Source of the DNA: Gammaproteobacteria bacterium
GTDB lineage: Bacteria > Pseudomonadota > Gammaproteobacteria > Ga0077536
DNA: 64,000 nucleotides
NCBI GenBank assembly: GCA_963662545.2
Contig: CAXXLL010000003.1
Location: forward strand, 352,001-416,000
Direction of reading: 5' to 3'
Shown here: in pieces, positions 2,884 to 36,755 of the stretch
Layout: every line of letters starts with the position of its first letter
Numbering within the stretch: position 1 is the stretch's first letter
Notes under the pieces: model-generated
What the model was told of the DNA's origin: nothing
Databases searched by the model: none
Seen by the model: the letters and a program-made list of their open reading frames with translations, nothing else
Program-made: the position numbers and the translations under genes

Positions 2884-3027
2884 TAAGCCGCGTGTAGCAA
2901 AAGTCGCCGCTCGCCAGTGCCGCGTTGCCGAACGCTACTCGACGACCGCTTACGAGCGCATTGCAGACGTAATGCTTAGCGTTGTTGCAGTGCCGCGATT
3001 TGGCCGCTGACGACCCTAAACGGCCAT
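2884..3027 (+). repeat. Tripartite palindromic repeat, copy A
   Basis: Unit 2 acgaccgcttacgagcgcattgcagacgt (2942-2970); unit 3 ttggccgctga-cgaccc-taaacggccat (3000-3027); unit 1 degenerate. Confidence 0.85.
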
Positions 3028-3188
3028 CGGCGAAAATCGAATAACCAATCCTGACGGTTTCAAGTAGGGGAAATTTAACCCCGAGCGTAACGTCGCAATG
3101 CAAGACTTAATCCCATCGTTTAAGTCCTATGGACTGGGGAAAGGGTAGACCGCTGGAAAAGGGTTAAGCCGGTGTTTCAGGGGCCCTT

Positions 3189-3415
3189 TGTCAAGATTTT
3201 TTACACGCCGAGTTTCCCGGCCCGATTGGCGCTAAGCCTTTGTTGTTATTACGGTTCGTACCCAGATTACCCGGAAACCCCGGTGATTTGGCCCCGAAAT
3301 GGGTTGAAAAGTGTCAGTAATTTTTACAAATCCCGGTATTTTTACGGCGTCATGCTAGGGCGTATGGCCTAACCCCTTGAAAGCACTTTAATTATTTTTT
3401 TGGCATGAAACCTGC
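3189..3415 (+). promoter_or_regulatory. Sigma-54 promoter with two TGT-N11-ACA enhancer boxes (PrsR-type PEP-CTERM control region)
   Basis: TGT-N11-ACA at 3189-3205 and 3312-3328; TGGCAT-N5-CTGC (GG-N10-GC) at 3401-3415. Confidence 0.75.
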
Positions 3416-3477
3416 GTCTTAACCAAGCGACGAGAGGCAATTGTTGCCCAATTTAGAAAACGACCGGAGCGTCTGAC

Positions 3478-4257
3478 ATGACCTCGTTCGCGGCCAACCC
3501 CGCGAAACCATTTCCCCCGGCCGCCATTCTGGTGGCGATTCTTCTTATAGGTGCCCCACCGTCCGCTCGAGGCGTGGTGTTGAATTTCGAGGGCTTGATG
3601 CTGCAGTTTCCAACTGGCAACGAAGGGCCGGTTCTAACGCCGTTCCTTACCGGGACGTATGGGTTTCGCTTAACATTGGACGAGCCAGAGCTCTTCCCAC
3701 AAGTCATTAACACGCCTGCTATGCAGGGCATCGTGCACGACATCGAGACCGCTCAGCTCGAAATTTTCCACAACGGCGTGCCCCTCATAATCGGGAGCCA
3801 GGACGTTCACGCCGCAGACGACGGTGTATCGGCCCAGATCTTCTATGACTACAATAATCCCGGAGAAGGCTTCAACGGCCCCCTCGATTTGATCTTAGTG
3901 CAAGGCATCATACCCAGCGGCTCGTTACTGACGGACAATTTATTTGAAGCGGTAACTCTAGAGATTTTCATGACGTTGTTCCCCATGGACGAGTTAGACG
4001 CTTCCGCACGTGAATTGCCTACCCTGATACCGCCATCACAATTCAACGTGGTTACTATGACTATTCACTACCAGATATTATCTGTAAGCCCCCAAGCAGT
4101 GGTGACCCATGAAATTATCCGCGTGGATGGGTTTCAGGGAACCGGTTTCGGCCCGGTGACTAGCCTCACGCTACAAACCATCCCTGAACCCACCGCCCTT
4201 GCCCTTATGGGATTAGCACTCGCAGGATTGGGTTTCCAAAGGCGTAAAGCAGCGTAA
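3478..4257 (+). CDS. PEP-CTERM sorting domain protein
   Basis: N-terminal signal-like segment; C-terminus IPEPTALALMGLALAGLGFQRRKAA. Confidence 0.9.
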   Translation: MTSFAANPAKPFPPAAILVAILLIGAPPSARGVVLNFEGLMLQFPTGNEGPVLTPFLTGTYGFRLTLDEPELFPQVINTPAMQGIVHDIETAQLEIFHNGVPLIIGSQDVHAADDGVSAQIFYDYNNPGEGFNGPLDLILVQGIIPSGSLLTDNLFEAVTLEIFMTLFPMDELDASARELPTLIPPSQFNVVTMTIHYQILSVSPQAVVTHEIIRVDGFQGTGFGPVTSLTLQTIPEPTALALMGLALAGLGFQRRKAA

Positions 4258-4281
4258 CCGCTCTCAATAATCTAACATCAG

Positions 4282-4309
4282 GAAGCCTGCTTCGGCGGGT
4301 TTCTTTTTT
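4282..4309 (+). terminator. Rho-independent terminator
   Basis: gaagcctgc-ttcg-gcgggtttc followed by a T-run. Confidence 0.8.
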
Positions 4310-4317
4310 GGCGCGCC

Positions 4318-4462
4318 AGGTCCGCAGTTGGCCGAGACCCGCCCTGCTCAGCTAACGCTCCACTGAAAGCCACTGGATGACCGCTTCCGAGCGCATTGCA
4401 GACGTAACGTTTAATCGTGCTGCACTGCCGCGATAAGGCCGCTGACGACCCACAGCGGACAT
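4318..4462 (+). repeat. Tripartite palindromic repeat, copy B
   Basis: Units at 4318-4345, 4377-4405 and 4435-4462 (period 59/58 bp). Confidence 0.9.
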
Positions 4463-5323
4463 GGCTATCGGAGCGGCAGTGAAGGGAATGCCACTGTCAA
4501 GCGTCCGCCTCCAACGACCCGTTATGCTGCATTATGAATGCACAGTGACCCCATTTCTGTTCAATTATTCTACGATCCTTTTCTATGTTCGGCGGACCTG
4601 GCGGAACTTCATTGTCGAGCGCCGTGAACATTTGAGCAGCTATGCTCCCGGAGCCTGTTATTTCCAGCATTTCGCCGCCATCGCCGTATTTGAACGCATG
4701 TATCGTTCCACCCGGCACAAAAACAAGTGTGCCTGGTGTGCACAGTTCGGTCCTTCCATCACAGGTGATTTCAACGCTTCCTTTAATCACGAAAAATGAT
4801 TCATCCCAGTCGTGGCTATGAGGCGGAGGTCCCATGCCTTTGTCTCCGGACTGATACGTAAATTCCTGTCCCTGTGTTTCTTGTTTTGAAGCGAGCACGG
4901 CTATCGGAGCGGCAGTGAAGGGAATGCCACTGTCAAGCGTCCGCCTCCAACGACCCGTTATGCTGCATTATGAATGCACAGTGCATTACTTCTACGATCT
5001 TTTCTATGTTCGGCGGACCTGGCGGAACTTCATTGTCGAGCGCCGTGAACATTTGAGCAGCTATGCTCCCGGAGCCTGTTATTTCCAGCATTTCGCCGCC
5101 ATCGGGGCCGTATTTGAACGCATGTATCGTTCCACCCGGCACAAAAACAAGTGTGCCTGGTGTGCACAGTTCGGTCCTTCCATCACAGGTGATTTCAACG
5201 CTTCCTTTAATCACGAAAAATGATTCATCCCAGTCGTGGCTATGAGGCGGAGGTCCCATGCCTTTGTCTCCGGACTGATACGTAAATTCCTGTCCCTGTG
5301 TTTCTTGTTTTGAAGCGAGCACG
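4463..5323. repeat. ~430-bp tandem duplication of the 3' part of a cupin gene plus half attC
   Basis: 4463-4898 is repeated at 4899-5323 with small indels. Confidence 0.9.
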
Positions 5324-5397
5324 GTTACGTCAGTGCCTACGACGTTCAACGCGGATTTATAAGTCTCCGGTTTGATAATAAGCGGGGCTCTACTCAT
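4933..5397 (-). CDS. Cupin domain protein (integron-type cassette; 3' end disturbed by indels)
   Basis: GPPPHSHDWDESFFV...GTIHAF cupin motifs; GGAGGA RBS before ATG 5397. A 5'-truncated copy lies at 4497-4898. Confidence 0.85.
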   Translation of the reverse strand: MSRAPLIIKPETYKSALNVVGTDVTVLASKQETQGQEFTYQSGDKGMGPPPHSHDWDESFFVIKGSVEITCDGRTELCTPGTLVFVPGGTIHAFKYGPDGGEMLEITGSGSIAAQMFTALDNEVPPGPPNIEKIVEVMHCAFIMQHNGSLEADA

Positions 5398-5435
5398 GGG
5401 ATTACTCCTCCGACGGTGTAGATGGGCCGGTTGCG

Positions 5436-5489
5436 GCATAACGCTAGGATAACCTGCTGTAACACGTCAGGATGATCCGTTTGTTAGGT
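5436..5489 (-). other. attC site (short 59-be type)
   Basis: Minus strand ACCTAAC...GTTATGC with internal dyad (ggatcatcctg/caggttatcc). Confidence 0.75.
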
Positions 5490-5491
5490 GG

Positions 5492-6581
5492 CCCGGATTC
5501 ACAATGTAAGTGCAACACAAGAATTTCCCTATATCGCGTTAAACGAAGCGAGCTGGGATACTCGTAAGCACTCTCTTCTTGGCAGAATAGGAAACTTACG
5601 ATGAGTTATCACCAGCTCACCTCTGGAGAGAGGTATATGCTTCACACCTTGAAAATGCAAGGCTGTAAAAACGCAGAGGTCGCTCGAAAACTCGGGCGAC
5701 ATCGGTCTACGATCGGACGCGAACTAAAGCGTAATCGCCGCATCGGTCGGTATCGTCCTGACGAAGCTGAGGAGATGACCCGAGGCAGGCGAACGAAGTC
5801 TCGCCGACGATGGTATTTCACCGACCAACAACTCAGTCTCGCCATTCGCTTGCTGCGCGAGGAATGGAGCCCCCAGCAAGTCTCGGATTGGTTCAAGCGT
5901 CATCGGATATTTTCAATCAGTCACCAGACCCTATACCGGTATATCTGGTACGACCACTTCTTCGGCGGCACCTTATATAAGCATCTGCGACAGGCGGAAA
6001 AACGACGACGGAAACGCTACGGCAGCGGTGATTCTCGCGGTGTTATGCGAGGAAAGCGCCATATCACCGAACGACCACCAGGCGCTGAAAACCGTTCCCG
6101 CATCGGTCATTGGGAAATAGACACCGTCATCGGTAGCCACGACGGTCACTGCATCGTGACCCTCGTTGAACGTAAGACACGATATACCTTAATCGGAAAA
6201 CTTCGGGCTCGCACGACCGCCGAACTCAACCGCAAAGTGATCCAACTTATCAAACGTGAAATGCGCTTGGTGCGAACCGTAACCGCCGATAATGGAACTG
6301 AGTTTCATCAGTTCCAGAAGATAGAAAACGCGACCGACGCTCGCTTCTATTTTTGTACGCCATATCATTCCTGGGAACGCGGTACCAATGAAAATACCAA
6401 CGGCCTTATTCGACAGTACCTGCCCAAAGGGAAAACCATGGCAGACGTTACACAACGTGACTGCGATAAGATAGCGAAGAAACTCAACACACGTCCGCGA
6501 AGGGTTCTCGGCGTCAAAACACCGGAGGAATGTTATGCAGCAGTTTAATCACCCCTGTTGCACTTCACTTGGACATCTGGG
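5492..6581 (+). mobile_element. IS30-family insertion sequence, probable 3-bp TSD TGG
   Basis: ~26-bp imperfect IRs sharing AAGTGCAACA; tgg at 5489-5491 and 6582-6584. Confidence 0.85.
5601..6548 (+). CDS. IS30-family transposase
   Basis: HTH (LGRHRSTIGRELKRN), GHWEIDTV, TADNGTEF, WERGTNENTNGLIRQYLPK. Confidence 0.95.
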   Translation: MSYHQLTSGERYMLHTLKMQGCKNAEVARKLGRHRSTIGRELKRNRRIGRYRPDEAEEMTRGRRTKSRRRWYFTDQQLSLAIRLLREEWSPQQVSDWFKRHRIFSISHQTLYRYIWYDHFFGGTLYKHLRQAEKRRRKRYGSGDSRGVMRGKRHITERPPGAENRSRIGHWEIDTVIGSHDGHCIVTLVERKTRYTLIGKLRARTTAELNRKVIQLIKREMRLVRTVTADNGTEFHQFQKIENATDARFYFCTPYHSWERGTNENTNGLIRQYLPKGKTMADVTQRDCDKIAKKLNTRPRRVLGVKTPEECYAAV

Positions 6582-6606
6582 TGGATGATGCATTTCAAAT
6601 GTGAAC

Positions 6607-7038
6607 TCAGGCCCCTTCGGCTAGCTGCCGCTCGTAACAAGCAGCATCGTAGTAGCCACGAGACTGTGCGATCAGGCCTGATTCGCCCATCTCCCAAACC
6701 TCGACTCCGCTCACGCGAACGGAATTTCCCGTGCCGCCCGGTCCTGTGTTGGTCCCAGTGAGCGTCCATACAAAGAACGCAGCATTACCTGCGACGAGAA
6801 GCTGATCAAGACTGATTTGTAAGTCGGGAAAAGCTTCCATGTAGCTACTTGCTACAGCTGCTAGCGCCGTGCGTCCAATGGCGGGTGGTCCGTCGTTTAT
6901 CGATTGTCGTCCGACTTCCTCGTAGCACGAGGCCATTCCCTCCGGATCGTGCGAAGACCACGCACTCGCACACCGAATCGCGAGATCCCATAGTGCTTGG
7001 GATGGGGCCGTCGAACCTGGCGTCGAGGCTAATTGCAT
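6607..7038 (-). CDS. SnoaL/NTF2-like ester cyclase family protein (cassette)
   Basis: AFPDL, WTLTGTNTGPGGTG..VRVSG motifs; GGAGG RBS; core site GTTAGGC upstream at ~7101-7107 on the minus strand. Confidence 0.85.
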   Translation of the reverse strand: MQLASTPGSTAPSQALWDLAIRCASAWSSHDPEGMASCYEEVGRQSINDGPPAIGRTALAAVASSYMEAFPDLQISLDQLLVAGNAAFFVWTLTGTNTGPGGTGNSVRVSGVEVWEMGESGLIAQSRGYYDAACYERQLAEGA

Positions 7039-7194
7039 TACCGTTTCCTCCGGTTTTTTGCTTTAACGAAAATGTGTCCTTATTTGGGAACTGTATAGAG
7101 GCCTAACATTAAATGGTCGCTACAATGACGCGATTAATCGAATCATTGTGACGCATAATAATCGGTGCAGACATAGCTGTGGTTACGGTAGCCG

Positions 7195-7339
7195 GGGATG
7201 GCTCTTGGCCGACTGCAGCCGTGCTCCCTCCACTCGGTTCTTGAAGCAACTGGACGACCGCTATGAAGGGGAATACAGACGTAATCTAGAGCGGTGTTGC
7301 GATGCGACGATGAGGCCGCTGACGACCCACAGCGGACCT
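7195..7339 (+). repeat. Tripartite palindromic repeat, copy C
   Basis: tggccg-actgcagccgt ... gaccgctatgaagggg..cagacgt ... ggccgctga-cgaccc-acagcggacct. Confidence 0.9.
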
Positions 7340-7469
7340 CCACAAATCCGGAACCGCTATGCCCGTCCGACGACGAGAACCAAGTTTTCAATCGCTCTTG
7401 TCAGTTGATTATCGATTCCCGGACGGGTTACGGTTCCGTTACCTTAAGAAAATATGGAGAGAGCACTTA

Positions 7470-8414
7470 ATGTCGTTGCCCTCCTTGCCAGAAGTAACTC
7501 GTATTTACCAGAACACGTTCTTCGACAGCACGCGCTGGGACGGTTTCAAACCGCGCGACGGTGACATCATCATCTCGACGTCGTACAAAGGCGGCACGAC
7601 CTGGACACAGGCAATCTGCGGGGCGCTTATTTTTCAATCACCGGACCCTCCTGCACCGCTGGACGAACTCTCACCGTGGATCGACTCAATGTACCATCCC
7701 ATTGAGGACGTCCTCGACCGCGTCGAAACGATGACCTACCGCCGTTACGTCAAGACGCATTTACCGCTCACGGCAGTGCCCTATTACGACAATGTCCATT
7801 ACATCTTCGTCGGTCGTGACGGGCGCGACGTGTGGATGTCGCTGTGGAATCACTTCCGCAACATGAAACCGGAGGTGGTGCAGGCGTTGAACGATAATCC
7901 TCTACGCAAAGGACCCGAGGTGCCGCCGGTTGCCACAGACATTAACGAGGGGTTCGATGAGTGGATGTCGAAATCCCTATACCCCTGGGAACGCGACGGC
8001 TATCCGGCATGGTCACTCCATAATCACGCACAAACGTGGTGGAACTACCGGCACCTCGACAATATCCTGTGTGTTCATTTCGCCGATATGCTCGATGATC
8101 TGAACGGTCAGATGCGCCGCATTGCCGCGTATCTCGACATACCGGTAAACGAGGACGTCTGGCCGGCGCTCGTGCAGTCGGTCACATTCGATGAGATGAA
8201 GCGCAACTTCGCTACGCGCGCACCGGGCAGCAGTAGGGGGGTGTGGAAAGACACTAAGAATTTCTTTCACAAGGGCACCAATCGTCGCTGGGAAGGCGTG
8301 TTGAGCGCTGATCAGATCAGGCGGTATGAATCGCTTATTACAGAGCTGATGGAACCGAATTTGGTGCGCTGGCTTGTGCACGACGACGGGTTCATCGATC
8401 CAAAATCCTTATAG
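7470..8414 (+). CDS. Sulfotransferase domain protein
   Basis: PAPS-binding SYKGGTTW, KTHLP, RDGRDV..S and FFHKG..RW; likely start ATG 7470 after GGAGA. Confidence 0.9.
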   Translation: MSLPSLPEVTRIYQNTFFDSTRWDGFKPRDGDIIISTSYKGGTTWTQAICGALIFQSPDPPAPLDELSPWIDSMYHPIEDVLDRVETMTYRRYVKTHLPLTAVPYYDNVHYIFVGRDGRDVWMSLWNHFRNMKPEVVQALNDNPLRKGPEVPPVATDINEGFDEWMSKSLYPWERDGYPAWSLHNHAQTWWNYRHLDNILCVHFADMLDDLNGQMRRIAAYLDIPVNEDVWPALVQSVTFDEMKRNFATRAPGSSRGVWKDTKNFFHKGTNRRWEGVLSADQIRRYESLITELMEPNLVRWLVHDDGFIDPKSL

Positions 8415-8519
8415 CAGGCGACGGCGTTTGGCGTCGATAACGCCACCACCATCTGTTTCCCGTGAGCAACCATGAGACAACCGCTTTTATTCTTCTTATA
8501 CGTCCGCGATCAGGGCCGC

Positions 8520-8666
8520 CTGGTCGGAGATTCACCACAAATGCCCTTGTTCTCGAATAAACACCCGCTCATCGGTGCGCTGGGAATGATCGATCCCGAC
8601 TCTCTGACCCCGATCGAAGCGCTCGAAACTCTCTTCCGGTTGCGGTCCTTACTCGACGACGAATGA
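8520..8666 (+). pseudogene. mutS: 3' remnant of mutS (C-terminal tetramerisation tail only)
   Basis: PQMPLF...IDPDSLTPIEALETLFRLRSL resembles the MutS C-terminus; it lies directly before fdxA, as in the known mutS-fdxA order. Confidence 0.7.
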
Positions 8667-8742
8667 CCATCTTTCTTGTTGGGCTCGGGCGAGGCCGCCG
8701 TTATACTGCACTGCTTTTTCATCAGTCACGAAGTGCTGAGAC

Positions 8743-9066
8743 ATGACATTTGTTGTTGTTGAAAGTTGTATCAAGTGCAAGCTCACGGACTGCGTGGAGG
8801 TATGTCCCGTCGATTGCTTTCACGAAGGTCCGAACATGCTGGTCATCGATCCGGATGAATGTATCGATTGCACCTTGTGCGAACCCGAATGTCCGGTCGA
8901 CGCCATCAAATCCGAGGACGATCTCACCGACGACGAGCAGCACTTCCTGGCCTTGAACACGGAACTTTCCGCCGAGTGGCCCGTGATCAGTGAGATGAAG
9001 GACCCGCCGCCCGATGCGGATGAGTGGAGGGACAAAACCGATAAGCTGCAATACCTCGAACGTTGA
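8743..9066 (+). CDS. fdxA: 7Fe ferredoxin (Azotobacter FdI type)
   Basis: [46 protein letters not shown]. Confidence 0.95.
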
Positions 9067-9159
9067 ACAATGCCCGTCCACAAGCTCGGCTCTGAAGCGG
9101 ACCCATTCCGACTGCACGAGAACCGCCAGCGCTTTTGAACCGGCCATGTAGTGTGCTCG

Positions 9160-9615
9160 TTACAGCCTGTTCCGCACTGGGGCTGAAATGGCGCTCGATA
9201 ATGGGCAGTTGTTTCGGGTGTATGGCGCCTTTGCCGGTCATGCCGAGTTCTGTGCATCGTGCGGCCTCGCGTTCGAGGCCATCCATGTCCTCGAGGTCGA
9301 GCCACGGTACGTCGATGAGATCGACCTGGGCTTCGGCGGTTGCATGGACAAGACGCGAGCGCGCGTACAGCAGGGCATCCCAGGTCGGCGCAACGCGCAA
9401 CTCCGCAGCCATGTCGGTACCGCCGAACAGCAGTGCGTCGACGCGCGCGCTCGCCCTCGCAATCTCGTGGCAGGCTTTGAGCCCCTGATTTGTTTCGACG
9501 ATAAGCTGCAACCGAGTAGCCGCCCCCACACTGGTCAGCAGTTCATCGAGCAGGCGTACTTCATCCGGCGATTTGATCTTGGGTAGCACCAACCCGGGCG
9601 GCGGTGCGTCCGTTC
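9160..9615 (-). pseudogene. CitE/HpcH-HpaI aldolase-citrate lyase beta family fragment, truncated at both ends
   Basis: LVLPKI, IVETNQG, LLFGGTDMAAEL, GMTGKGAIHPKQ; the flanking ORF parts are non-homologous. Confidence 0.75.
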
Positions 9616-9744
9616 GTATAACCTGATATTTAGACGCCCCGCCCAACGCACTCATAAACTTTGAATTCGACGGGAGGACAGCGCCGGGCCATTTTTTGAT
9701 ACGCTGCATTTTCCGAACCGCGTTCGCGCAAGATTGTTCCGACC

Positions 9745-9972
9745 ATGGCTGATCTCCTACTCGATACCAAGGGACTCAACTGCCCCTTACCGATCCTCAA
9801 GACCAAGCGATCGATGAAAGACGTACCCGTCGGAGGGACCATCGAGATCCTCGCCACCGATCCGGCGGCTGACGCGGACTTTCAGGCATTTTGCCGCGCT
9901 ACGGGGCACGAATTGGTCGAGTCTTCGCAGGAGGGCGACGTCTACCGGTTTCTAATCAGACGGGCTAAGTGA
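9745..9972 (+). CDS. tusA: TusA/SirA-family sulfur carrier
   Basis: LDTKGLNCPLPILKTK, ATDPAA..DF..FC. Confidence 0.9.
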   Translation: MADLLLDTKGLNCPLPILKTKRSMKDVPVGGTIEILATDPAADADFQAFCRATGHELVESSQEGDVYRFLIRRAK

Positions 9973-9990
9973 ATGACTGAATTAACCTAG

Positions 9991-10225
9991 CAGGCTGTTG
10001 AAAAAGTCGAACTTTCCCACCGATTGACGATCAGATCGTGTAGGTCAGAGTAACGGGGAGCAACCCGATGCGCGGAGTCGATGATCGTCAAGACAGGATG
10101 TTCAGTTACATCTCGCTGGAGGCGAGAGTGCCGGAAAACCATCCGTTGCGGCCGATCCGCACGATGTTCGATGAGGCGCTAGCGAAGCTGACGGCGAAAT
10201 TTGACACGATGTACGCCGACGGCGA
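9991..10225 (+). mobile_element. Truncated IS5-family element (left end and transposase N-terminus)
   Basis: CTAG followed by CAGGCTGTTGAAAAAGTC end; MRG.D..Q..MFSYISLE.RVP..HPLR.IR, then homology stops. Confidence 0.75.
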
Positions 10226-10295
10226 GCTCGACGTTGTATTGGGCGTCGATCTCGTCCTGGGTCGTGAACCGGCGATAAAGCATCGCGTAAATCAA

Positions 10296-10323
10296 GAGGT
10301 CAGAGTCAATTGACTCTGACCCC
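10296..10323. repeat. 28-bp palindrome GAGGTCAGAGTCAATTGACTCTGACCCC (REP-like)
   Basis: Seen directly; partner copy at 11322-11349. Confidence 0.8.
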
Positions 10324-10346
10324 TCGCCGGACAATCTCCCGGCCAA

Positions 10347-11273
10347 TCAGTAGCGCGGCACGCCGGGATCGATCTTCTGCGACCAGGCGTCGATGCCGCC
10401 CGCGAGGTTATGCGCGTTGCTATAACCATTGCGACTGAAAAAATCGGCCGCGGACTGGCTGCGCATACCGGTATGGCAGTGGAAGACGAGCAGCGCATCC
10501 TTCGCCAGTGAATCGATGAATTTCCGCGCCTCTTCGTCCAGCAGACGTGAGCCTTCGATCATGGCGCGTTCGCGTTCGTCTTTTTCACGCACGTCGAACA
10601 GGTGCACCGGTTCGCCCGCATCCATCTTCGCCTTGAGCTCCTCGACTGACATCTGCGCGGCGGGCGCCGGTGCGTTCGGGTTTTTGATGCTCATGCTCAT
10701 GCCCTGCGGCGTTTCCGTCATGTCGATCACGAGTCCGTCGGCGCGCCGCGCCGAGTCGACGTCCAGCAGGAGCTCGATGCCATTCGTGGTAACGCCAACC
10801 TCGTGGCCTTTCGCGGGGGCCAGACTGAATTCATGGTTCCAGTCGGCGTCGATACTGAGGTGCACCGGGACGCCCGGAGTCTCAGCCATCACGTTGCGGA
10901 TCGCCCTCGCCGCGGTGTCGCTGATGGTGATCTCCGGCGTGACGAGTTCGACCGGTTCCACGCCCAGCGCTTGGTGCAATTGGCCGGTGGTGTACATCTG
11001 CTGAATCACGTCGCAGCCGCCGAGGAATTCCTGATCCACGTAGAGCTGCGGTATCGTCGGCCATTGCGAATATTCCTTGATACCCTCCCTGATCTCCTGA
11101 TCCGCCAGGACATCGACCGTATCGTAATCGGGCGCCACATTGTTCAGAATGCTGATGACGGTGGCCGAGAAGCCGCATTGCGGCTGCTGCGGGGTGCCCT
11201 TCATAAAGAGCACGATTTTGTTCGACGCGATGGTCGAATCGAGGCGGGAGCGAAGCTCGTCGGTGAGCGGCAT
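10347..11273 (-). CDS. grxD: Monothiol glutaredoxin (CGFS) fused to a HesB-like domain and a rhodanese domain
   Basis: FMKGTP.QPQCGFS and WPTIPQLY; middle PEITISDTAA segment; C-terminal DVRE..E, CHTGMRS, LAGGIDAWS..IDP.VPRY. Confidence 0.9.
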   Translation of the reverse strand: MPLTDELRSRLDSTIASNKIVLFMKGTPQQPQCGFSATVISILNNVAPDYDTVDVLADQEIREGIKEYSQWPTIPQLYVDQEFLGGCDVIQQMYTTGQLHQALGVEPVELVTPEITISDTAARAIRNVMAETPGVPVHLSIDADWNHEFSLAPAKGHEVGVTTNGIELLLDVDSARRADGLVIDMTETPQGMSMSIKNPNAPAPAAQMSVEELKAKMDAGEPVHLFDVREKDERERAMIEGSRLLDEEARKFIDSLAKDALLVFHCHTGMRSQSAADFFSRNGYSNAHNLAGGIDAWSQKIDPGVPRY

Positions 11274-11321
11274 GGTCAACTCTTTGATGACGTTCGAGAC
11301 TGTACACAGTGTATAAAACAG

Positions 11322-11349
11322 GGGGTCAGAGTCAATTGACGCTGACCCC
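11322..11349. repeat. 28-bp palindrome GGGGTCAGAGTCAATTGACGCTGACCCC (REP-like)
   Basis: Seen directly; partner copy at 10296-10323. Confidence 0.8.
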
Positions 11350-11368
11350 ACACCCGGAGAAACTTCCC

Positions 11369-11830
11369 ATGCGACTCATTGCGGCGATGATCATCGTGCA
11401 ACTGGCCCTTGGCTCGCTGGCCTTTGCCGTTGAAAGCCCGGAGGAACGCGCGGAAGCACTGTCGTCCTTCGCCGAGTTTACCGTACCGCAAACCGGTGGT
11501 CCGCATCCGCTTGCGATCCTGATGCCCGGATGCCTCGGCTGGCACCCGCATCACGAACGATGGCGGGACGACTTGTTGAGTCGCGGGTTCGCCGTCCTGC
11601 AGGTCGACAGTTTCGGCGCGCGGGGTGTCGACGATCGCGCGGTCATGGAACGGGACATCTGCACGGGACGGCGCATCCCCGGATCCGAGCGCGCGGGGGA
11701 TCTCATGGCCGTGCTGCGGAGATCTGGGAGCGCCTCGACGTGCGGGCGGACCGGACGATCCTGATGGGCTGGTCCACGGCGGCTGGAGCGCGATGGATTT
11801 CATGATCCTAGCCGAAACCGCAACATCGAA
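11369..11830 (+). pseudogene. Dienelactone-hydrolase-like alpha/beta hydrolase, frameshifted and truncated
   Basis: Signal peptide, ILMPGCLG and GFAVLQVDSF; the ILMGWS/HGGWSAM nucleophile motif is split across frames near 11720 and 11775. Confidence 0.7.
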
Positions 11831-11866
11831 GCCGTCAACCCGCGAAGAGCGGCGAGGACGCGGCGC

Positions 11867-12268
11867 TTAAGAACCGCTGCCGCCGCAGCCGCTGCACATG
11901 CCGCTGCCGCCTACACTCTCAAAGACATTGTTAAAGACAAAGGACTCATTGAGGCCGTCCTTGACGTAGTCGATTTCGCAGCCCCGTAGGAAGTTCAGGG
12001 CGACGGCATCCACCACCAGCTGGAAGCCCTCACGCTGAAGGACACAGTCGTACTCGGTCCGCCCGTCAACGTAGGTCATCCCATAGCTGAGCCCATTGCA
12101 TCCGCCACCCTCAACAAAGATACGCAGGGCAGTGAACTCCGCCTCGGCCTCCTCCATGATGTTCGCGAGCTGCGCTTCGCAAGCGGGCGTAATCGTTATG
12201 GTTTGCGCGGTGATCGCCTGCGGATATTCGGACCTCGATTCTTGCAACACGGTCTTGAACCTCACTCA
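11867..12268 (-). CDS. HesB/IscA/ErpA-family A-type Fe-S carrier
   Basis: LRIFVEGGGCNGLSYG, VVDAVALNFLRGCEIDYV; atypical C-terminus GGSGMCSGCGG. Confidence 0.85.
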
Positions 12269-12361
12269 TTCAACTGCAATAATTAGATAAAATAATTCTT
12301 GAGTATTTTACTCAACTATTATAGCTCGGTCGACCTCACCCCGCCTCGAAGCCCACTAGCC

Positions 12362-12646: not shown

Positions 12647-12717
12647 CCAGCGCAGCGGAACGATTTCCGCAGTTCCGCTGTTGGCATCTCCGGTCGCGGG
12701 CGGAAGTGCTTTGGCGG

Positions 12718-15245: not shown

Positions 15246-15274
15246 CCTGGGCGCGCAGCGGGCTATTCGGCGCA

Positions 15275-27116: not shown

Positions 27117-27161
27117 GCGGATGAAGATTTCGCCAAATACTCCAGCCTGCTGAGAATCCGG

Positions 27162-27306
27162 ACGACCGCTCATGGCCACGAGCCCAAGTCAGGCTTCCAC
27201 GTAGCGCGTTAAGCAGTTTGACGACCGCTTCCGGGGGTATTGCAGACGAACTCCTTAGTAGTGCTGCGCTACCGCGATCAGGCCGTTAACGACCCACAGC
27301 GGACGT
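27162..27306 (+). repeat. Tripartite palindromic repeat, copy J
   Basis: acgaccgctca-tggcca... gaccgcttccgggggtattgcagacg ... caggccgttaa-cgaccc-acagcggacgt. Confidence 0.9.
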
Positions 27307-27323
27307 CCGCAAATACGGAACTT

Positions 27324-30300
27324 CTACCCCAACTCCTCCAACAATCCCTTCGCTTCTTGCAGATCTTTGGTGTCAAAGCCTTCAGTGAACCAGTTGTAAA
27401 TTTCGGAGAGTAACTGGTGAGCTTCGGTTTGCTTCCCCTGCTGTTGCCACAGACGGGCGAGACTTGTGGAGCCGCGGAGTTCCCAGGATTTGGCGCTTTG
27501 CTCCCTGGCGATTTCCAGGGCTTTCTCGAAGCAGGTTTCGGCTTCGGGCTGGACGGCCGAGGTGGGATGCTCTCCACCTGACTGCAAGGTCATCTCGCCC
27601 TTGAGACGATAGAGTTCGGCCGCGCACCATATTTCATCGCGTCTTGTACTCATTTCAAGTGCTTCATCCAAGACGATCAAAGCCTCATCGGTTTGGCCTG
27701 CCTTGCTGTGTAACCGGTCAAACGGCGGCGTCTGGTAATTGATCTCGTGTTGCGGTAACGACGGCCAAGTTAGAACGCAGCGGTTGGGTAGCGAACAATG
27801 TCTTCCACACCCGAGGCGTGAGTTGTTCCACTGCGCTATCCGGATGGATCGCGATCCTCTGGAGTACATCAACCAGGTAGGTGTACGGATTAATGCCGTG
27901 TATTCGGCAAGTACAGATCAAACTTTGTATGATCCCAACGTGTTCAGCGCCCACCTCAGTCCAACAGAACATCCAATTCTTTCGGCCCATCGGAATGGGT
28001 CTCAGAGCGCGCTCTAAATGATTCGTGTCGATCGCGACGCTCGCATCCGATAAGTAAACACGTAACGCGCCCTCACGCTCGGCTGCATAGGCCAGCGCCT
28101 TCGTAAACGGCTGACTCGGTAATAAACCCATGCACTGGCGTTGCTCGTCAAGCCAGGCAAAAAATGCATCAACCGCAGGCAAGGCGTACCGGCTGCGGTA
28201 GGTCTGGGTCGCCGCTTCATCCATTGCCTGGTCACGGATGGTGGCCTCAACGGCATACAGTGCCGCGATCAAATCAAGTGCCTGCGCCGCACTTTGTGGC
28301 CTATCGGATAATGCCCTTTCGAACTGACGACGCGTGTGCGCCCAGCATTGCGCATGCACGACTTCATCGCCGCGATCGGCGGCAAAACGCGCATAAGCCG
28401 CGGCGCCATCGGTTAGTAAGGTGCCTTTAAAGTCCACCAACGTTTTGTCGATGTGCGACCGCGCCTTGGTTCGCGCAAACGTGAACGCAATCTCATCCGC
28501 TTCGCCATAAATTGGCCAATACCACGCCGCGTTCATCTTGCCCTTGCCCGAGCGACCCGCCTTAATCGGCGTTTCATCCATCGCCAGCGTCTTCGATAAC
28601 AAGATATGCCGCAACTGCGCCAGATAAATCGGCTTCAACAGGTCACTTGCCTTCTGCACCCAGTGCGTCAGACTCGACCGCGCCACGGTAATGCCGTTCA
28701 GCCCCATTCGTTGATGTTGACGGTACAGCGGCAGGTGATAAGCGAACTTATCAACCAGCATCCCCGCAACCACACTCACATCCGCCAATGAGCCGGACCA
28801 CAGACCATCGGGCGCCGGGATCGTGAAGATCTGACCGTCGCTTTTGCGCTTCACTACCGGTTGGATGTACTTCAAGACCACATAGGCCGCCGGCCGTTGC
28901 GCTAAACGATAGGTGATCTTTTCACTGCTCGCTTCAAACGCATCCGCGACATCTTCAGGTACCGACAATTGGATGCATTCAATCGGCACCGAGTCATCGA
29001 AACGTAACCCTTGATCAGTCACACAATCATCGCCACGGCGCTTTCCTTTGCGCCGCTGATAAGTGATCGTTTCTTTCTCAACCGCCGCCGTCGATGACGA
29101 CTCATCCTCGAAGCCATTGAGTAACCGTTGATCGGGATTGGGATCAATCAGCCGCCGTTCAGACTTGCGACCGAACAGTTGGCGTTTGAACCAGTCGAGT
29201 TGTTGGGTGAGTGTGGCGACCTGCGTTTTGAGGGCTGTGTTTTCCGCTTGTAACACCGCCGCATCAAGTGATATTTCCGGCGTTGCATAACCCCCATTCA
29301 TGGGTACGTATTGTACCGTTTACACTGCTGACCGTCGATCGTTTTCCGGTAATCGAAACCGTTTTAATCGACGCACTGAGCGTAGATCGATCCCTTCAAT
29401 AATGCACTGCCATTCGCTGCGTTGCAGCCGCTGTTTGACCTCGCTATTCCACCGAACCTGGAACTGACCGCGTTCGAGTTTCTTACTCCACAGACAATAT
29501 CCGTCCGACTCAAAGTACAGCGCTTTTAATAACGTACGCCGGCGATTGACGAAAACGTACAGTGCCCCATCGAGGGGCTCCTCGTGTAACGCCTGCCGCA
29601 CCAACGCCGATAAACCATGGAACGATTGACGCATATCAGTCGGTGCCCGACATAACCATATACGCAAACCCGATGGGGGCGACCACATCAGTGCCGTGAC
29701 ACACGTAGCACGATGTCATCACCGAGCGCTAACTCGATATCCCATTGTGCATTGGTTAATGGTTGTAACGGGGCCAACTCGACGAAACGTGTTTCCGCCT
29801 TCCCTATCTGAGCGTCCCTCGCTGACCTCGACTTCCTTTTACTGAACGTCGAATATCCAATTCCTCGCTCAGCACAGAATGCGCGGATCGATGAACCGCT
29901 TTGTGCCTGCTCCGCTAATAGGCCACGCCACTCATCCGCACTACGTCGTTTGTTCCGAGGTTTTCCGTGATCATTCATTTACCAAGCTCCCGATTGACTG
30001 GGAAACCTGGCAAACTAAACCATCTGCCCGAGACCGTGAATAACGGCCTGGATTGACCGGTTACCTTGCTGTGTATCTCGGCCGTTAAGGCGAGATAGTG
30101 TGGCCTATAGGCCCCGACTCCGGAGCTACGAAGGCTCGCCACCGCCTCACCAGCGTCGCTTATTTGATCTTTCCGATAGCATTGCCCAGCCGAAGCCGTG
30201 CAATGCAAGATAGTTCCCCATGCCCAGGTTATCGTGAAGCCTTGGTCGTGCGATAGCGTAGCGGCGTCTTGTGCGTGCTCGCATGTCGCCGGCAGTTCAC

Positions 30301-33151
30301 CGCGCCACCTGTGAATCATTGCCGCAAAATCCAATGCCCACGCCAAGCTAAATCGATCCCCAAGCTTCCTCGCTAGTGCCAAGGCGGCGGTGCTGGACTC
30401 CATTGCCTGTGTCGGATAGCCCAGCAACCAGCGGGTCATAGCAACCGTAGTATGAGCACATACCCCAAGGTCGAATCCACTTATCCGCACTGTTGAATCA
30501 CGGTGCAGCTCGATATCGTAGAGATCCGCACACTGGTCCAAATGCTCGCGCGCGGCCAGCAGTTCTCCCTGAAAAAATTGGGCATATGAAATTGCGGAAT
30601 GGGCTTTTAGAAGGGTGTTCGAATCATCCTCGTTTTGAGCGAGCCGCACGAGCTTTTCAGCCAGTGTGCGCCCGGTTTTCAGCTCAGACTGCCAGAAATG
30701 ATACACACATATCCCCAGCAGAATATCGGTAACTTCAGGTCTGTCTCCGAGCTGGCGACATAGCGCTTCGGCTCGGCTATAGGTGATTTTGGCTTCCTTA
30801 GTTCCATGCCTTCCGGTAACCATTTGCGCCGCGCCTACCTGCATTTGTATAACGAGCTCCCGTTGGGCTCGTGCCGGGGTGTCATCCAGGGTATGGAGTA
30901 ATTCGAGCGCCTGCGTCAGATGCCGGATGGCCTCAATGTTGGCCGAGCGTTGCGCAGCATTTTGTCCGGCCAGCTGCAAATATTCGATCGCCTTCTCGGT
31001 GTTGCCGCCCTTGGTGTAGTGATACGCGAGCTCACCATAGTGGTCTTCGAGGTTGGACCAGCGCAGGGCTTCTACAGCCTGCGCCGTTTTCTCATGCAAG
31101 GTCTTGCGTCGCTCCTGCAAGACCGTCCCATAGGCCACTTCCTGGGTCAGTGCATGTTTGAAGATGTATTCGACTTCGGTCAGCGCCGGTTGCTCATAGA
31201 GAAACTCCTTCGCCTGCAGCGATGAGAGCAATCGATATAATTCGTCGTCACTCTGCACTACGACCTTGCGCACGAGCCCTAATGGAAACGCCCGGCCGAT
31301 GACCGCGAGTTCTTGTAGCAGCGCTTTCTCGTCGGCCTCCAGTCGGTCAATGCGAGCAGCCAATACCCCCTGTACGTTCGGCGAGAGTTTCAACTCACTC
31401 GGTGTCTCCTCGATGCGGTATTGACCCCGCTCTCCGAGCAGCACACCTTCCTCGGCCAAGGTCTGTACGACCTCCTCCATAAAGAACGGCGTGCCGTCGG
31501 TGCGTTCCAGAATGAGGGCTTTCAAGCCCTTCAGACTTGGGTCATCGCCCATGAGAAAGCTCAGCAACTCCTTAGCCTCTTCCTCGCCCAGGGGCGTCAG
31601 ACGCAGTTGGACGTAATAAGTCTTGCCGCCCCACTCATGACGGTACTCGGGGCGGTAGTTCACAAGCAGCGCGATACACGCACTCGCGATGCTCTCACCG
31701 AGCGACTCCAGAAAGCCCTGCGTCTCACCGTCGATCCAGTGCAAGTCCTCGACGATCACCATCACCGGCTGGTTCAGACTCTCTCGCAGAAACAGCCGCT
31801 TCAGGGCATCGAAGGTTCGCTGACGCCGGATCTGAGGATCCATCTGGTCCAGGCTCGCCGTCGGATCTGGGATCCCGAGAACGGTAAAGAGATAGGGCAG
31901 GGCGTCTTCCAGGTTCCGGTCCAGCCCCAGGACCTTCCCGATGACCTTCTCGCGCCTCGTCCGCTCGTCATCCTCCAGTTTGATCTGGAAGTAGTTCTTG
32001 AGCAGTTCGATGACGGGCAGATAGGGTGAGGCCTTGCTGTGGGAGACCGAATAAGTTTCGAGGACCAGGCAGCCGGCTTGCGAGGTGAGTTTGAACTCGT
32101 AGAACAGCCGCGATTTGCCCAAGCCCGGCTCACCCATCACACCTACGATCTGTCCATGACCCGCTTTCACCTGCTCCAGGGCTTGTTGCATCTGGTCGAG
32201 TTCACTGTGCCGACCCACGAACCGCGAGAGTCCCCGTCGCGCAGCGCGCTCGAGCTTGGTCCGTAAGGGCCCGCCGCCAAGGACCTCGAAGACCTTGAGC
32301 GGCGCTTCCATCCCTTTGACCTGCGTCTCCCCCAGCGCCTTGAGATCGAAATATCCTTCGGTCAATTTCTGTGTCTGCTCCGTCACCAGGATCGAGCCCG
32401 GCGTCGCCATCTCCTGCATCCGCGCCGCGATGTTGGTCGAATGCCCTACCGGCACGTAGTCAGTATGCAGATCGTCTTTGCGAATTGAGCGCACCACGAC
32501 TTCACCCGTGTTGATGCCGATCCGCATGAGCAAGGGCGTGCCGCCACTCAGGCGCAGCTTGTCCGAGTAGCGCCGCATCTCGTCTTGCATTCCGAGTGCC
32601 GCATACAACGCTCGCTGCGGATGATCTTCACGCGCGATCGGCGCACCGAACAAAGCGAAGATCCCATCACCCAGCGCCTGGGCCACATAGCCGTCATAGC
32701 GGTGGACCGCATCAATCATCAGTTGCAGCGCGGGGTCGATGATGGCGCGGGCGTCTTCGGGGTCGAGTCCTTCGATCAGGGCCGTCGAGCCTTTCAGATC
32801 TGCGAACAGCGCGGTGATGGTCTTGCGCTCGCCATCGGTTGCGCCCCTTTTTTCCATGGCCGCCTGTTCGGCCAGGATGCGCTCGGCGAGATGGTGGGGC
32901 GTGTAGCTGGCGGGGGATTGAGACGCGGGTGAAACTGATTCAGTTGCGCAGCTGCGTTCTGTCTGGCCATTCCAGACTAGACCACGGCCGTCACTTTCCT
33001 CAATCTCCGGATGGGAGAACAGGAGTTCTTCTTTAAGTACGTCGAGCTGATCATCGTCCAGATCGAACTCCATTTTGAGCGCACGATACGACATTCGCCC
33101 TTTGCGTTGTAGTAAGGCGCCGGCTTGATCGATAACTTCCGAAAACTTCAC
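27324..33151 (-). pseudogene. Class III adenylate/guanylate cyclase-AAA ATPase-TPR (STAND-like) protein split by IS66
   Basis: LFADLKGST, GDGIFALFG and RIGINTG cyclase motifs; GEPGLGKSRL P-loop; EDLHWID; C-terminal tail (SWELR..SLARLW..FTEGFDT.DL) at 27324-27709. Confidence 0.9.
27710..30064 (-). mobile_element. IS66-family element (tnpA 29688-29978, tnpB 29320-29688, tnpC 27718-29301), 8-bp TSD CTTGCTGT
   Basis: GTAACCGGTCAA ends; TDMR.SF.GL TnpB; HLPLYRQ, MDETP, CWAH.RR, TNHLERALR TnpC. Confidence 0.95.
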
Positions 33152-33297: not shown

Positions 33298-33433
33298 ATG
33301 TCCGGAGTTGGCCGAAAGCCGTCACGGTGAAGCGTGGGATTCGCGTCGCCGATGATGGCTGCTTTCGGGGTAAGCGGACGTGGGGTTAATCGACGGCTTC
33401 TCATTCCTCTTCCCCACCCTCCGGTCGAAGCGA
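33298..33433 (+). repeat. Related two-unit palindromic repeat, copy K
   Basis: atgtccggagt-tggccg-aaagccgtcac ... atggctgctttcggggtaagcggacgt; homologous to 36625-36755. Confidence 0.8.
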
Positions 33434-34925: not shown

Positions 34926-35004
34926 TTCCGGACGCTTGGTTGTGACTGTGAAATAACAGTGAAACAGACCCTCGATCGTCCACCGCTGCAACCATTCACG
35001 GCGA

Positions 35005-35150
35005 GCGCCGATTCGAGCGTCCTGACGAGTTCGATATTGGACGCGATCCGCACCTGCATCTGACCTGCGACTACGGTATCCATTTCTGTGTCGGTGCGCC
35101 GCTTGCGCGGCTCGAAGGCGATGTCGCGATCGGCGCCTCTCGCGCAAATC
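35005..35150 (+). pseudogene. Cytochrome P450 heme-binding fragment
   Basis: Hand translation: [34 protein letters not shown]. Confidence 0.75.
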
Positions 35151-35289
35151 CAGTAGCCGAGAACTATTCCGTACAAGTTGCCTATTCCTACGCAGGCGCG
35201 TAGATAGTCTCTGTAGCATGCATTCATGGCCGGCCTCCTTTCGGGGCAAAGCTGCTCTGCGCTGGCTGGCGGAAGATACGGCGCCCTAC

Positions 35290-35318
35290 ATAGCACCCTT
35301 CGGGGCGCTTTCTTTTGT
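35290..35318 (+). terminator. Hairpin/terminator module, copy 1 of 3
   Basis: agcaccc-ttcg-gggcgct plus ttcttttg; also at ~38015 and ~39253. Confidence 0.7.
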
Positions 35319-35346
35319 CTGCAGATTCAATTACAACGATCAATCC

Positions 35347-35733
35347 ATGGCCGACAATCCCCTCTCCCCCTACCTGATATACCGCCCGCAGCTGACCTCG
35401 GTCCTATCGTTCACGCATCGCGCGACTGGTGTATTCCTGAGCCTCGGCACGGTGATCCTGCTGTACTGGCTGGTTGCAGCGGCGCTCGGTGCCAATGCCT
35501 ACACCGAGGCGCAGCGCTACATAGCATCCGTACCGTCGCAAATCGTGCTAGCCGCCTGGACGTTCTCCTTCTATTTCCACCTATTGAATGGCGTGCGGCA
35601 TCTGTTTTGGGACCTGGGCTTGGGATTCGAACTCGACACCGCCTACAAGACGGGTTACGCGGTGCTCGTGCTGACGGTCGTCATGACCGGGCTGACCTGG
35701 GCCTGCGTACTGGCCCAGGCTGGGGTGTTATGA
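35347..35733 (+). CDS. sdhC: Succinate dehydrogenase cytochrome b556 subunit (orphan; followed by ~10 codons resembling the sdhD start)
   Basis: PLSP..IYRPQLTSVLSFTHRATG, HLLNGVRHLFWD.G.G. Confidence 0.9.
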   Translation: MADNPLSPYLIYRPQLTSVLSFTHRATGVFLSLGTVILLYWLVAAALGANAYTEAQRYIASVPSQIVLAAWTFSFYFHLLNGVRHLFWDLGLGFELDTAYKTGYAVLVLTVVMTGLTWACVLAQAGVL

Positions 35734-36125
35734 ATCTGCGCTGCGACTTGAGCCGCGCGATTTCCGAAACGCTTTCAAAGTTGCTGAACTATCCATCCGC
35801 TTCCAACGCAAAGGTGGAGAGTTACTAAAAGCTAATGGGTTTGGTGAGTGGGGCGGTGATCGAAAATCAAAGGTCAACGTGACCCTTGATCAATTAGGGA
35901 TTCCCCCTAACGACTCAAAACGTTACCAACAACTGAACCGGGTACCTGAGCCCGTAGGCAGAATTTCAAGTCTGCAGACAGCAATCGACGGTTATCAATA
36001 ATTGAATTACCTGAATCGGCGGGTTAACTTCTTGAGATGGCGGACAATATACCAAGCAACCTGGAATATCGTTATACGGATCCATGGGCCCGTTTAATAT
36101 TCTGTTAGGTGTAAGGAGAAACCAA

Positions 36126-36465
36126 TTGAACTGGGGTGCAATTAGCGGTATTGCCGTTGCGGTAAGCGCTATCGGCGTCATCGCGTCGCTAATTTACATC
36201 GCCATCTAAATCAAGAAAAACACCGTAGAAATCAGAAGGTCGAACGCTAGGTCAACCGCGCACGATCATGCTTTAGCAATACACGCCATATTTCAGGATC
36301 CCGATGTTTCGGAAATCATCTTACGCGGACTAGACAATCTGGGGGATTTAAACCCTACAGAACGATATCGATTTGATCTCGCGACACTAGTATGGCTCCA
36401 AGCGATAGAACAGGCATTCGCAGATATTCGTCAACGCAATTATCCCGACGATCTGGAGGATACCT
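36126..36465 (+). pseudogene. 'MNW' paralog 4, in-frame TAA at 36207 and 3' truncation
   Basis: AAGGAG RBS, TTG start: NWGAISGIAVAVSAIGVIASLIYIAI*IKKNT...ERYRFDL. Confidence 0.8.
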
Positions 36466-36625
36466 GTTGATTTGTACTCGAAATTGATCCATTTAAGTTA
36501 GGGTTTTGCGTTTCGCCGTGACCCGCCATGTCGGCGTTAACACGATGATTGGGTTCTCGAATCGACCTACTACCTTGGTCATTGCTCAGTGCAAAAGGTG
36601 GGTCAATCTGGTGTGCAAATCAACA
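36466..36625. mobile_element. IS21-derived MITE/remnant
   Basis: TGTTGATTTGTAC...GTGCAAATCAACA terminal IRs with internal GACCC/GGGTC repeats; no TSD seen. Confidence 0.7.
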
Positions 36626-36755
36626 CGCTATTGGCCGAAAGCCGCCATGGTCAGGTGAGGGATTCGCATTGCCGGTGATGGCTGCTTTCGGGTTAAGCGG
36701 ACGTGGGCTTGATCGGCGCTTCTTATTCCTCTTTCTCACCCTCCGGCCAAAGCGC
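36625..36755 (+). repeat. Related two-unit palindromic repeat, copy L
   Basis: tggccgaaagccgcc...gggattcgc...gatggctgctttcgggttaagcggacgt...caccctccgg. Confidence 0.8.

Follow-up and report, generated by a model that had tools for sequence, protein, structure and literature searches.

A ~145-bp palindromic repeat, here called R, marks the boundaries of gene modules in the window, a 64,000-nt stretch of a gammaproteobacterial genome (GTDB Ga0077536; assembly GCA_963662545.2, contig CAXXLL010000003.1, positions 352,001 to 416,000 of the forward strand). Comparisons within this genome and with its relatives support that the modules are inherited and exchanged one at a time. R looks like an undescribed kind of gene-cassette boundary. 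In the reading that we tentatively favor, and to which we give somewhat less than an even chance, the R copies, sitting head-to-tail between single accessory genes and beside a classical integron of a sponge-associated Pseudomonadota lineage, would be non-canonical recombination sites at cassette boundaries. The cassette-like shuffling system to which they belong would overlap the lineage's integron and its attC clusters that have no integron integrase (CALINs).

Repeat R and its arrays

Window coordinates are positions in the 64,000-nt stretch; G000 is the studied genome, and C2 and C3 are its contigs. A profile was built from ten window copies of R and searched with nhmmer (cut-off E<1e-3). 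It gave 11 matches in the window, all on the + strand, and none in positions 27315-64000. Repeat detection found 9-10 co-linear copies, alignable across ~145 nt (Table 1). A preliminary description of this DNA had placed the repeat at ten sites (A-J), all on one strand, all intergenic and absent from the housekeeping part of the window. Repeat detection, alignment and profile agreed on the sites and the strand, copy G resolving into a left-half piece and a fuller copy, and the absence from housekeeping DNA was confirmed. The copies are intergenic, with the exception of the partial G piece, which overlaps the start of the open reading frame (ORF) 20635-21201 by ~20 nt. Two more sites, K (33298-33395) and L (36631-36718), had been listed as related copies. 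They belong instead to a separate, dispersed ~95-nt palindrome family with 13 copies in G000, none of which overlaps R. Only end motifs (TTGGCCGA.AGCCG and AAGCGGACGT) are common to the two families, and the R core is absent from K and L.

Taken over 87 full-length copies, the consensus describes a composite inverted repeat of ~140 nt. GTCCGCT...AGCGGAC form the outer arms and TTGGCCGA../..GGCCGCTGACGACC the inner arms, and the central hairpin is conserved. The left side of the consensus reads GTCCGCT, TTGGCCGA-AGCCG-CGTC, ~25 variable nt and GACGACCGCT. The centre has the hairpin GCAGAC/loop/GTGCTGCA and an overlapping 15-nt palindrome, GCAGTGCTGCACTGC, and the right side continues with CGCGA, GGCCGCTGACGACC and the outer arm (C)AnAGCGGAC. 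By consensus and information profile, the conserved blocks are TTGGCCGA, GACGACCGCT, GCAGACGTAA, GTGCTGCACTGCCGCGA and GGCCGCTGACGACCC. The heptamer GNCCGCT is present in three direct copies and one inverted copy. Between the left and right 24 nt, 19 of 24 positions are pairable, as an imperfect duplex; the arms are separated by spacers of unequal length (1 nt vs. ~11 nt in the consensus) and the interior has no simple stem. Cognate outer arms were more complementary than non-cognate ones (permutation p ~0.0075; 37 of the 87 copies were usable, the others having no anchor motif, or an insertion sequence (IS) or miniature inverted-repeat transposable element (MITE) at the right end).

Genome-wide, R gave 119 matches in G000 (5.58 Mb, three contigs), and 113 of them sit in 11 arrays covering 326 kb, or 5.8% of the genome. 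This clustering is far beyond chance. The strand is uniform in nine of the 11 arrays (e.g., 39/39, 17/17 and 11/11 copies) and there is a single switch in the other two; one of the uniform arrays, with 39/39 copies on the same strand, measures 136 kb. Replication as the cause of the orientation was ruled out, both array orientations being found on each replichore defined by GC skew. Two arrays start directly after a tRNA gene and a phage-type integrase, and two after a small FimB/FimE-like tyrosine recombinase. Several kb of R array are 100% identical between G000:C2:2578489-2588144 and C3:910006-919300, and also between the C2 end and the C3 start, reflecting a recent segmental duplication or else contigs joined through the repeats during assembly.

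Outside G000, R was present in both other members of the genus, G001 and G002 (27 and 7 matches), in 0/22 other genomes of the same family that were searched, and, by model search, in 1/150 other genomes sampled across the class. Weak R-like matches were found in one genome of another family of the class, G038 (2.4 Mb). These are ~30 mosaics of GNCCGCT/AGCGGNC heptamers in both orientations, several per 3-kb contig (C28, C29, C95, C139 and others). An exact-pattern scan detected three loci in 185,579 species genomes and three short metagenome contigs. Because the pattern catches 38/119 copies in G000 and one of the ~24 copies at the loci of the relatives, such a scan would overlook divergent relatives. 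Public runs holding the window locus include some labelled as sponge metagenome. A match to an already described family, which the preliminary description had named as a finding that would speak against its proposal, did not emerge. Rfam gave only three tRNAs at gathering thresholds and no match at E<=1 over window positions 2800-7400, R had no match in plasmid or phage records, and no description of such a repeat was found in a full-text literature search, judged from titles and abstract openings.

We consider it rather unlikely that R is a selfish, non-autonomous repeat, a mosaic resembling MITEs or bacterial interspersed mosaic elements (BIMEs), which colonised the gaps of cassette arrays and islands, the modules being older and scrambled later by repeat-repeat recombination. 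The ~145-bp length, inverted-repeat ends and lineage-specific sequence are in agreement with such an element, but 113/119 copies are restricted to 5.8% of the genome and are co-oriented irrespective of gene direction, which sets R apart from dispersed MITEs or repetitive extragenic palindromes (REPs). The dispersed K/L family and the ~30 weak heptamer mosaics of G038 would suit a selfish origin. No IS with R-like ends was seen among the 119 profile matches, IS91-type ends are unlike R, and only one fragment of the seven Y1-transposase matches lies in an array. Target-site duplications were absent from the copies inspected by eye, which was not a systematic inspection. At one and the same position, R differs between G002 and G000 within conserved flanks, pointing toward a turnover independent of the neighbours, and module-wise exchange between species would still need a mechanism. 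The readings overlap in part, as R could be selfish and also supply the homology by which modules are shuffled.

A purely expression-related role of R in cis (as insulator, terminator, mRNA-stabilising site or protein-binding site), with no part in gene movement, is very unlikely. R has a strictly intergenic placement, 7-60 nt from ORF ends, and its repeated heptamers resemble protein-binding sites, but its orientation is independent of gene direction. In window positions 2500-21500, 0/7 promoter-like and 0/22 terminator-like matches fell in R, and the totals were at chance (expected 10.8 and 18.4). R as a conserved RNA was rejected, with no Rfam match even at E<=1, and a hairpin of only seven pairs without compensatory change or covariation. 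An expression role would also leave unexplained the homology breakpoints in R and the site-specific IS insertions described below.

Module exchange and the link to integrons

Each of the intervals D-E, E-F, F-G, G-H, H-I, I-J and J-K contains one module, after discounting IS3-, IS1380-like and IS66-type insertions. This had been proposed in the preliminary description and holds for all seven, as does the single PEP-CTERM gene in A-B. B-C has two modules plus an IS, and C-D is a 10-kb multi-gene interval.

In G001 there is a single co-oriented array, with 14 profile matches. Six non-IS blocks are common to this array and G000, of which five map to four different R arrays of G000, and their neighbours are not conserved. 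These five blocks are 88-96% identical, vs. 67-80% for the core DNA flanking the arrays. For G002, modules are 95-97% identical, vs. 90-92% for the core. Several modules are present in two arrays within G000, at 98-100% identity. The sulfotransferase block that follows copy C is also found behind another R copy, at G000:C3:1459108-1460181.

The preliminary description took the repeats as joining sites and suggested a search for breakpoints inside them. In each of the 8 to 10 cases of shared modules that were examined, the end of homology lay inside R or at its edge. The break was located after GCAGAC (R centre) in the SnoaL pair and the C2_1620k/C3_913k pair, after CGACCC (right edge) in G002 R1 compared with two G000 copies, and after TTGGCCG (left edge) in G002 R2 and one further shared module. 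Copy C and the copy at G000:C3:909076 have 100% identity in the left two-thirds and differ in the right third. The repeats are thus boundaries of modules exchanged singly, which upholds one part of the proposal; a fixed crossover point, an excised circle and a co-occurring recombinase were not found. Three classes of breakpoint, coinciding with conserved blocks, are compatible with recombination among R copies or with gene conversion among them and are no proof of a single enzymatic crossover.

Public Logan contigs break at R cores and have many short-sided R-R joints (sides of 23-46 letters). These joints are no evidence of excision, because other R copies can supply them. The contig depth of neighbouring modules was 15.1, 9.25 and 2.9 in run X5 and even, at 14.8-20.6, in run X6; the differences in X5 are only a hint that modules vary in presence.

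Typical attC sites are imperfect palindromes with paired R and L boxes, unpaired spacers and extrahelical bases. They are recombined by the integrase IntI, and their arrays begin at attI beside intI. G000 encodes two IntI (C2:996723 and C3:1527239), scoring 462 and 461 bits vs. a TIGR02249 cut-off of 265. Its classical attC family, ~115 nt long with CCTAAC...GTTAGGT ends, has 65 loci after strand merging, adjoins the C2 IntI and also fills several arrays without integrase. R and attC are different sequence families. Four arrays hold both site types, and the attC loci there are co-oriented with R in 7/7 cases. The two settings also share cargo. The MNW family, small membrane-anchored proteins, has 13 full-length paralogues in six R arrays (25-44% identical), and many MNW genes lie in attC arrays, including the IntI-adjacent integron. 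The distance from MNW ORF to site is 10-60 nt in both settings.

The SnoaL module (window 6586-7274) is 100% identical to C3:908478-909166. The C3 twin begins exactly at the GTTAGGT end of a short, IS-free attC (C3:908385-908485) and runs into R. In the window the same attC is kept as a remnant (5454-5495), with an IS30-type element at its end; other G000 copies of this element sit in attC arrays. Because of the co-oriented interleaving, the common MNW cargo and the SnoaL module bounded by attC and R, R is not independent of attC. The earlier statement that the repeats could not be matched to integrons is therefore wrong on this point, given also the CALIN-like layout and the cargo common with IntI-linked cassettes.

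A stronger version, which we think improbable, is that R is a divergent but genuine attC class and a direct IntI substrate, its arrays being CALINs overlooked by current attC models. The co-oriented interleaving with attC, the cargo families and tight packing common to R modules and attC cassettes, and the one module between attC and R would all follow from it. The 19/24 pairing of the arms and the outer arms GTCC-GCT/AGC-GGAC, which follow the purine-pyrimidine pattern RYYY-NNN/NNN-RRRY of the attC consensus, are in line with it as well. In PMC4889954, CALINs are defined as clusters of attC sites without integron integrase and are common in genomes without intI, and AAC in R'' and the complementary GTT in R' are the best-conserved attC positions. 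This triplet is missing from R. The simple stem and equal spacing are lacking too, as is covariation, and no R array abuts intI. The median module is 2.1 kb in R arrays, vs. 0.58 kb for attC modules.

Gene direction also differs between the two kinds of array. In attC arrays 17/17 MNW genes have the same direction; if this is taken as the cassette direction, R reads as the reverse complement. The raw tally in R arrays (25 same, 15 opposite) is inflated by MITE-encoded matches, and therefore the 13 full-length genes were used. The direction of the longest ORF (26:23 in R modules, 15:23 in attC modules) was dropped in favor of the MNW test, because it does not discriminate even among true cassettes.

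Several results weigh against R being a non-canonical cassette site. Of the 13 MNW genes in R arrays nine point in the cassette direction and four are inverted, vs. 17:0 in attC arrays; that genes face both ways had already been pointed out in the preliminary description. There is no R within 50 kb of either IntI gene, and classical attC lies beside both. One loose attC/partial-R pair, 9.4 kb apart, has a discordant orientation. The attC triplet AAC/GTT is absent from the conserved blocks and ends of R (consensus, 87 copies). The proposed structure of arms plus hairpin has no covariation, paired cells reaching 76.1% vs. 76.6% in shuffles; RNAalifold retains only seven pairs with no compensatory changes, and 5/6 strand folds of single copies were no better than those of shuffles. 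The breakpoints fall in three places and not in one, a distribution that is also expected from homologous recombination between repeats or from gene conversion. One module carries different R copies on both sides in G002 vs. G000, R being ~72% identical and the module 95%. R is therefore replaceable independently of its neighbours.

The enzymes count against this reading too. No recombinase was found co-occurring with R: IntI, FimB-like, serine and Y1 enzymes all fail to track it, so the co-occurrence with a specific recombinase envisaged earlier was not borne out. G001 and G002 carry R, and no IntI was found in either at E<=1e-30, in assemblies with a completeness of 89% and 95%, from which islands often go missing. 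G002 shows only two tyrosine recombinases, and the serine recombinase, rejected as the R enzyme, is the sole copy in the genome and is broken.

Other candidates were rejected on their distribution or on their ends. The FimB-like invertase lies upstream of two arrays and was not found in G001 or G002. The Xer-like recombinase is part of the IS91-type element, whose ends are unlike R, and the relatives have no close homologues of it. Only one of the seven PF01797 matches (Y1 transposases), a fragment of 78 aa, is inside an R array, and R flanks none of the seven.

Under the reading of R as a non-canonical cassette boundary, modules would be exchanged by recombination between R copies, and each departing or arriving module would take one R equivalent along, in the way that an attC travels with its integron cassette. 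Candidate catalysts, in order of rank, would be (i) an integron integrase accepting a non-canonical site, (ii) another recombinase, and (iii) RecA-type recombination at the conserved blocks. With a low probability, the R arrays could instead be a second gene-capture platform without integron integrase, which swaps cassettes with the cell's classical integron. Its enzyme might then be a host recombinase or a recombinase resident in the arrays, not yet linked to cassette capture. In this arrangement single genes in either orientation, bracketed by the 145-nt palindrome with its GNCCGCT heptamers, would be exchanged between arrays and species.

Mobile elements at R and other features of the window

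Several IS families insert at R. An IS1182-type element (1.69 kb, 478-aa transposase) lies directly after ...GACGACC of a co-oriented R in 11/16 copies, and its 165-nt MITE derivative occupies the same motif in 17/23 copies, including E, H and I. The remaining insertions of both are mostly at look-alike arm motifs. An IS630-type element was found at CTAG of the R loop at three sites. A two-gene IS91-type element has 6/6 loci inside R arrays. It encodes an Xer-like tyrosine recombinase with a SAM-like N-terminal domain and a Y2 HUH transposase with a zinc-binding domain, in two subtypes. One IS91-type copy begins exactly at the left edge of R, at CTTG. A search of five copies of the element (nhmmer --max, E<=10) matched only neighbouring R copies and gave no similarity to R at the ends.

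Table 1 Features of the R array in the window, and loci of the IS91-type element in G000.
Feature	Position	Strand	Remarks
FimB/FimE-like small tyrosine recombinase gene, upstream of the array	282-2581	+	C-terminal remnant 2486-2581
R copy A	2876-3033	+	nhmmer, profile positions 6-164; repeat detection
PEP-CTERM protein gene	3478-4257	+	sole gene of A-B
R copy B	4306-4463	+	nhmmer and repeat detection; outer arms pair GTCCGC/GCGGAC
Classical attC, right half	5454-5495	+	co-oriented with R; attC-profile match, positions 82-123
IS30-type element	5496-6585 (ends approximate)	+	at attC R' end; ORF 5601-6548 (HTH_38 and rve)
SnoaL module	6586-7183	-	ORF 6607-7038; attC to the left, R copy C to the right
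R copy C	7184-7347	+	nhmmer
Sulfotransferase gene	7359-8414	+	start 12 nt past copy C
R copy D	17419-17554	+	degenerate left part; well-conserved core 17456-17545
Luciferase-like monooxygenase module (D-E)	17625-18740	+
R copy E	18835-18977	+	nhmmer; 3' end interrupted by MITE
MITE, ~165 bp	18976-19141 (ends approximate)	.	17-nt terminal inverted repeats; after ...GACGACC of copy E
E-F module	19193-20272	-	GFA-family gene 19193-19606; 176-aa ORF 19742-20272
R copy F	20469-20628	+	top score genome-wide, 140.8 bits
MNW-family gene 1	20635-21201	-	weak DUF6082 match; stop codon 7 nt from copy F
Partial R copy (G 21192 of the preliminary description)	21181-21282	+	left half, profile positions 3-104
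R copy G (fuller)	21318-21471	+	nhmmer; repeat detection reference copy
R copy H	23667-23816	+	nhmmer; 3' end interrupted by MITE
Identical MITEs	about 23815-23980 and 24740-24905		100% identical over ~165 columns in E, H and I
MNW-family gene 2 (H-I module)	24046-24537	-
R copy I	24588-24738	+	nhmmer; 3' end interrupted by MITE
MNW-family gene 3	24796-25284	+	ORF start inside MITE; IS (DDE_Tnp_1_4) 25351-26664 behind
R copy J	27151-27314	+	final copy of array; 12-nt outer stem, one mismatch
Cyclase/AAA_16 ATPase/TPR gene	27324-33151	-	end 10 nt past copy J; split by IS66-type 27701-30063
IS91-type loci	C3:6584-9421, C3:920803-923640, C2:623520-627523, C2:613-616 kb, C2:1616.8-1619.3 kb, C2:627.5-629.8 kb

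An abundant IS interrupts the FimB/FimE-like gene upstream of the array near residue 168. This IS (window 786-2480) encodes a 448-aa DDE_Tnp_1/DUF772 transposase (ORF 927-2273) and is present at about 50 other places in G000, as counted by tblastn with the last 25 residues of the fused ORF (~50 loci). Directly behind copy B there is a near-perfect tandem duplication (4454-5440; period 421-436 nt, 97-100% identical), which repeats the start of the module ending in the attC remnant. Inside C-D, a 41-nt element with the perfect palindrome GGTCAGAGTCAATTGACTCTGACC occurs at 10288-10328 and 11314-11354 and brackets a glutaredoxin-rhodanese gene (10347-11351). It may be another kind of module-bounding site.

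The split cyclase/ATPase/TPR gene belongs to a 1,200-aa class. The IS66-type element within it carries a TnpB-like ORF (29320-29688) and a transposase (27718-29301). In three of four public runs examined, contigs join 27700 to 30064 exactly, without the element, which makes the insertion recent; it is polymorphic in natural populations.

Outside the array, a GC-rich hairpin with a T-run (GCGCCCTTCGGGGCGC TTTCTTTTG) is found three times with conserved flanks, at 35267-35317, 37990-38062 and 39228-39300. From their sequence, these copies in the housekeeping part of the window look terminator-like. On the - strand, an open frame of >2,200 aa (57375-63998) runs past the window end and contains 315-nt tandem repeats that are 70-100% identical. 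This resembles a giant surface or adhesin-type protein with a repetitive build.

Comparison with known systems

REP/BIME, ERIC and Correia-type families are scattered along the chromosome in no common orientation. Like these families and MITEs, R is a short, intergenic mosaic built from palindromic motifs, present in many copies and lineage-specific in sequence; it differs from them by its confinement to 11 co-oriented arrays. REPs are 20-40-nt palindromes spread over extragenic space, and they flank a Y1 gene for a RAYT (REP-associated tyrosine transposase); no RAYT-type gene is flanked by R. MITEs have terminal inverted repeats that match an autonomous IS of their genome, together with target-site duplications and dispersed insertions. 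R has inverted-repeat ends as well, but it is clustered and there is no IS end among the profile matches; target-site duplications were sought by eye only.

The Xer-dependent dif modules of Acinetobacter plasmids have 28-bp sites in alternating orientation. In these, as in R arrays, genes of either orientation are bounded by recombination sites, and they are reshuffled by host enzymes. The analogy would fit the absence of a dedicated recombinase. R differs in its ~145-bp length and its co-orientation, and no 11-6-11 dyad was evident in the consensus by eye.

Sites of the attC type are themselves targets, namely of IS1111-attC elements and group IIC-attC introns. Likewise, the IS1182-type element and its MITE enter R at one fixed position and in a fixed orientation. 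The families at R are different ones (IS1182-type DDE, IS630-type and IS30-type), and so is the target, the ...GACGACC|C arm motif of R. To our knowledge, no well-understood system other than integrons stockpiles single genes behind a recombination site that is repeated, and the origin of integron cassettes is still unknown.

The closest likeness of R arrays is to CALINs and other attC arrays, in which imperfect palindromes 60-150 nt long lie co-oriented on one strand, at spacings of <4 kb (PMC4889954). R arrays have this layout, with co-oriented sites and a median gap of 2.1 kb, except for the nature of the site. Their membership among CALINs depends on R counting as attC, and R fails the triplet test. 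As in attC arrays, R separates mostly single accessory ORFs, the site is lineage-specific, and arrays are located away from intI or in genomes without it. Unlike attC, R has neither the AAC/GTT triplet nor the simple geometry of R box, unpaired central spacer and L box, and it has a conserved 70-nt interior in place of a variable loop. Its arrays contain genes in both orientations and longer modules, and none is beside intI.

R arrays account for about 6% of this sponge-associated genome. In it, 119 larger R sites take the structural position of attC beside two intI and 65 attC loci, but they lack the one sequence feature on which attC models are based. Should R be a substrate of IntI, attC is defined too narrowly and surveys count too few cassettes; otherwise, R arrays are a parallel cassette system. 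The mixed arrays are a natural case of cassettes crossing site types, and they offer a direct experimental handle, in which attC and R can be compared against the same two integrases.

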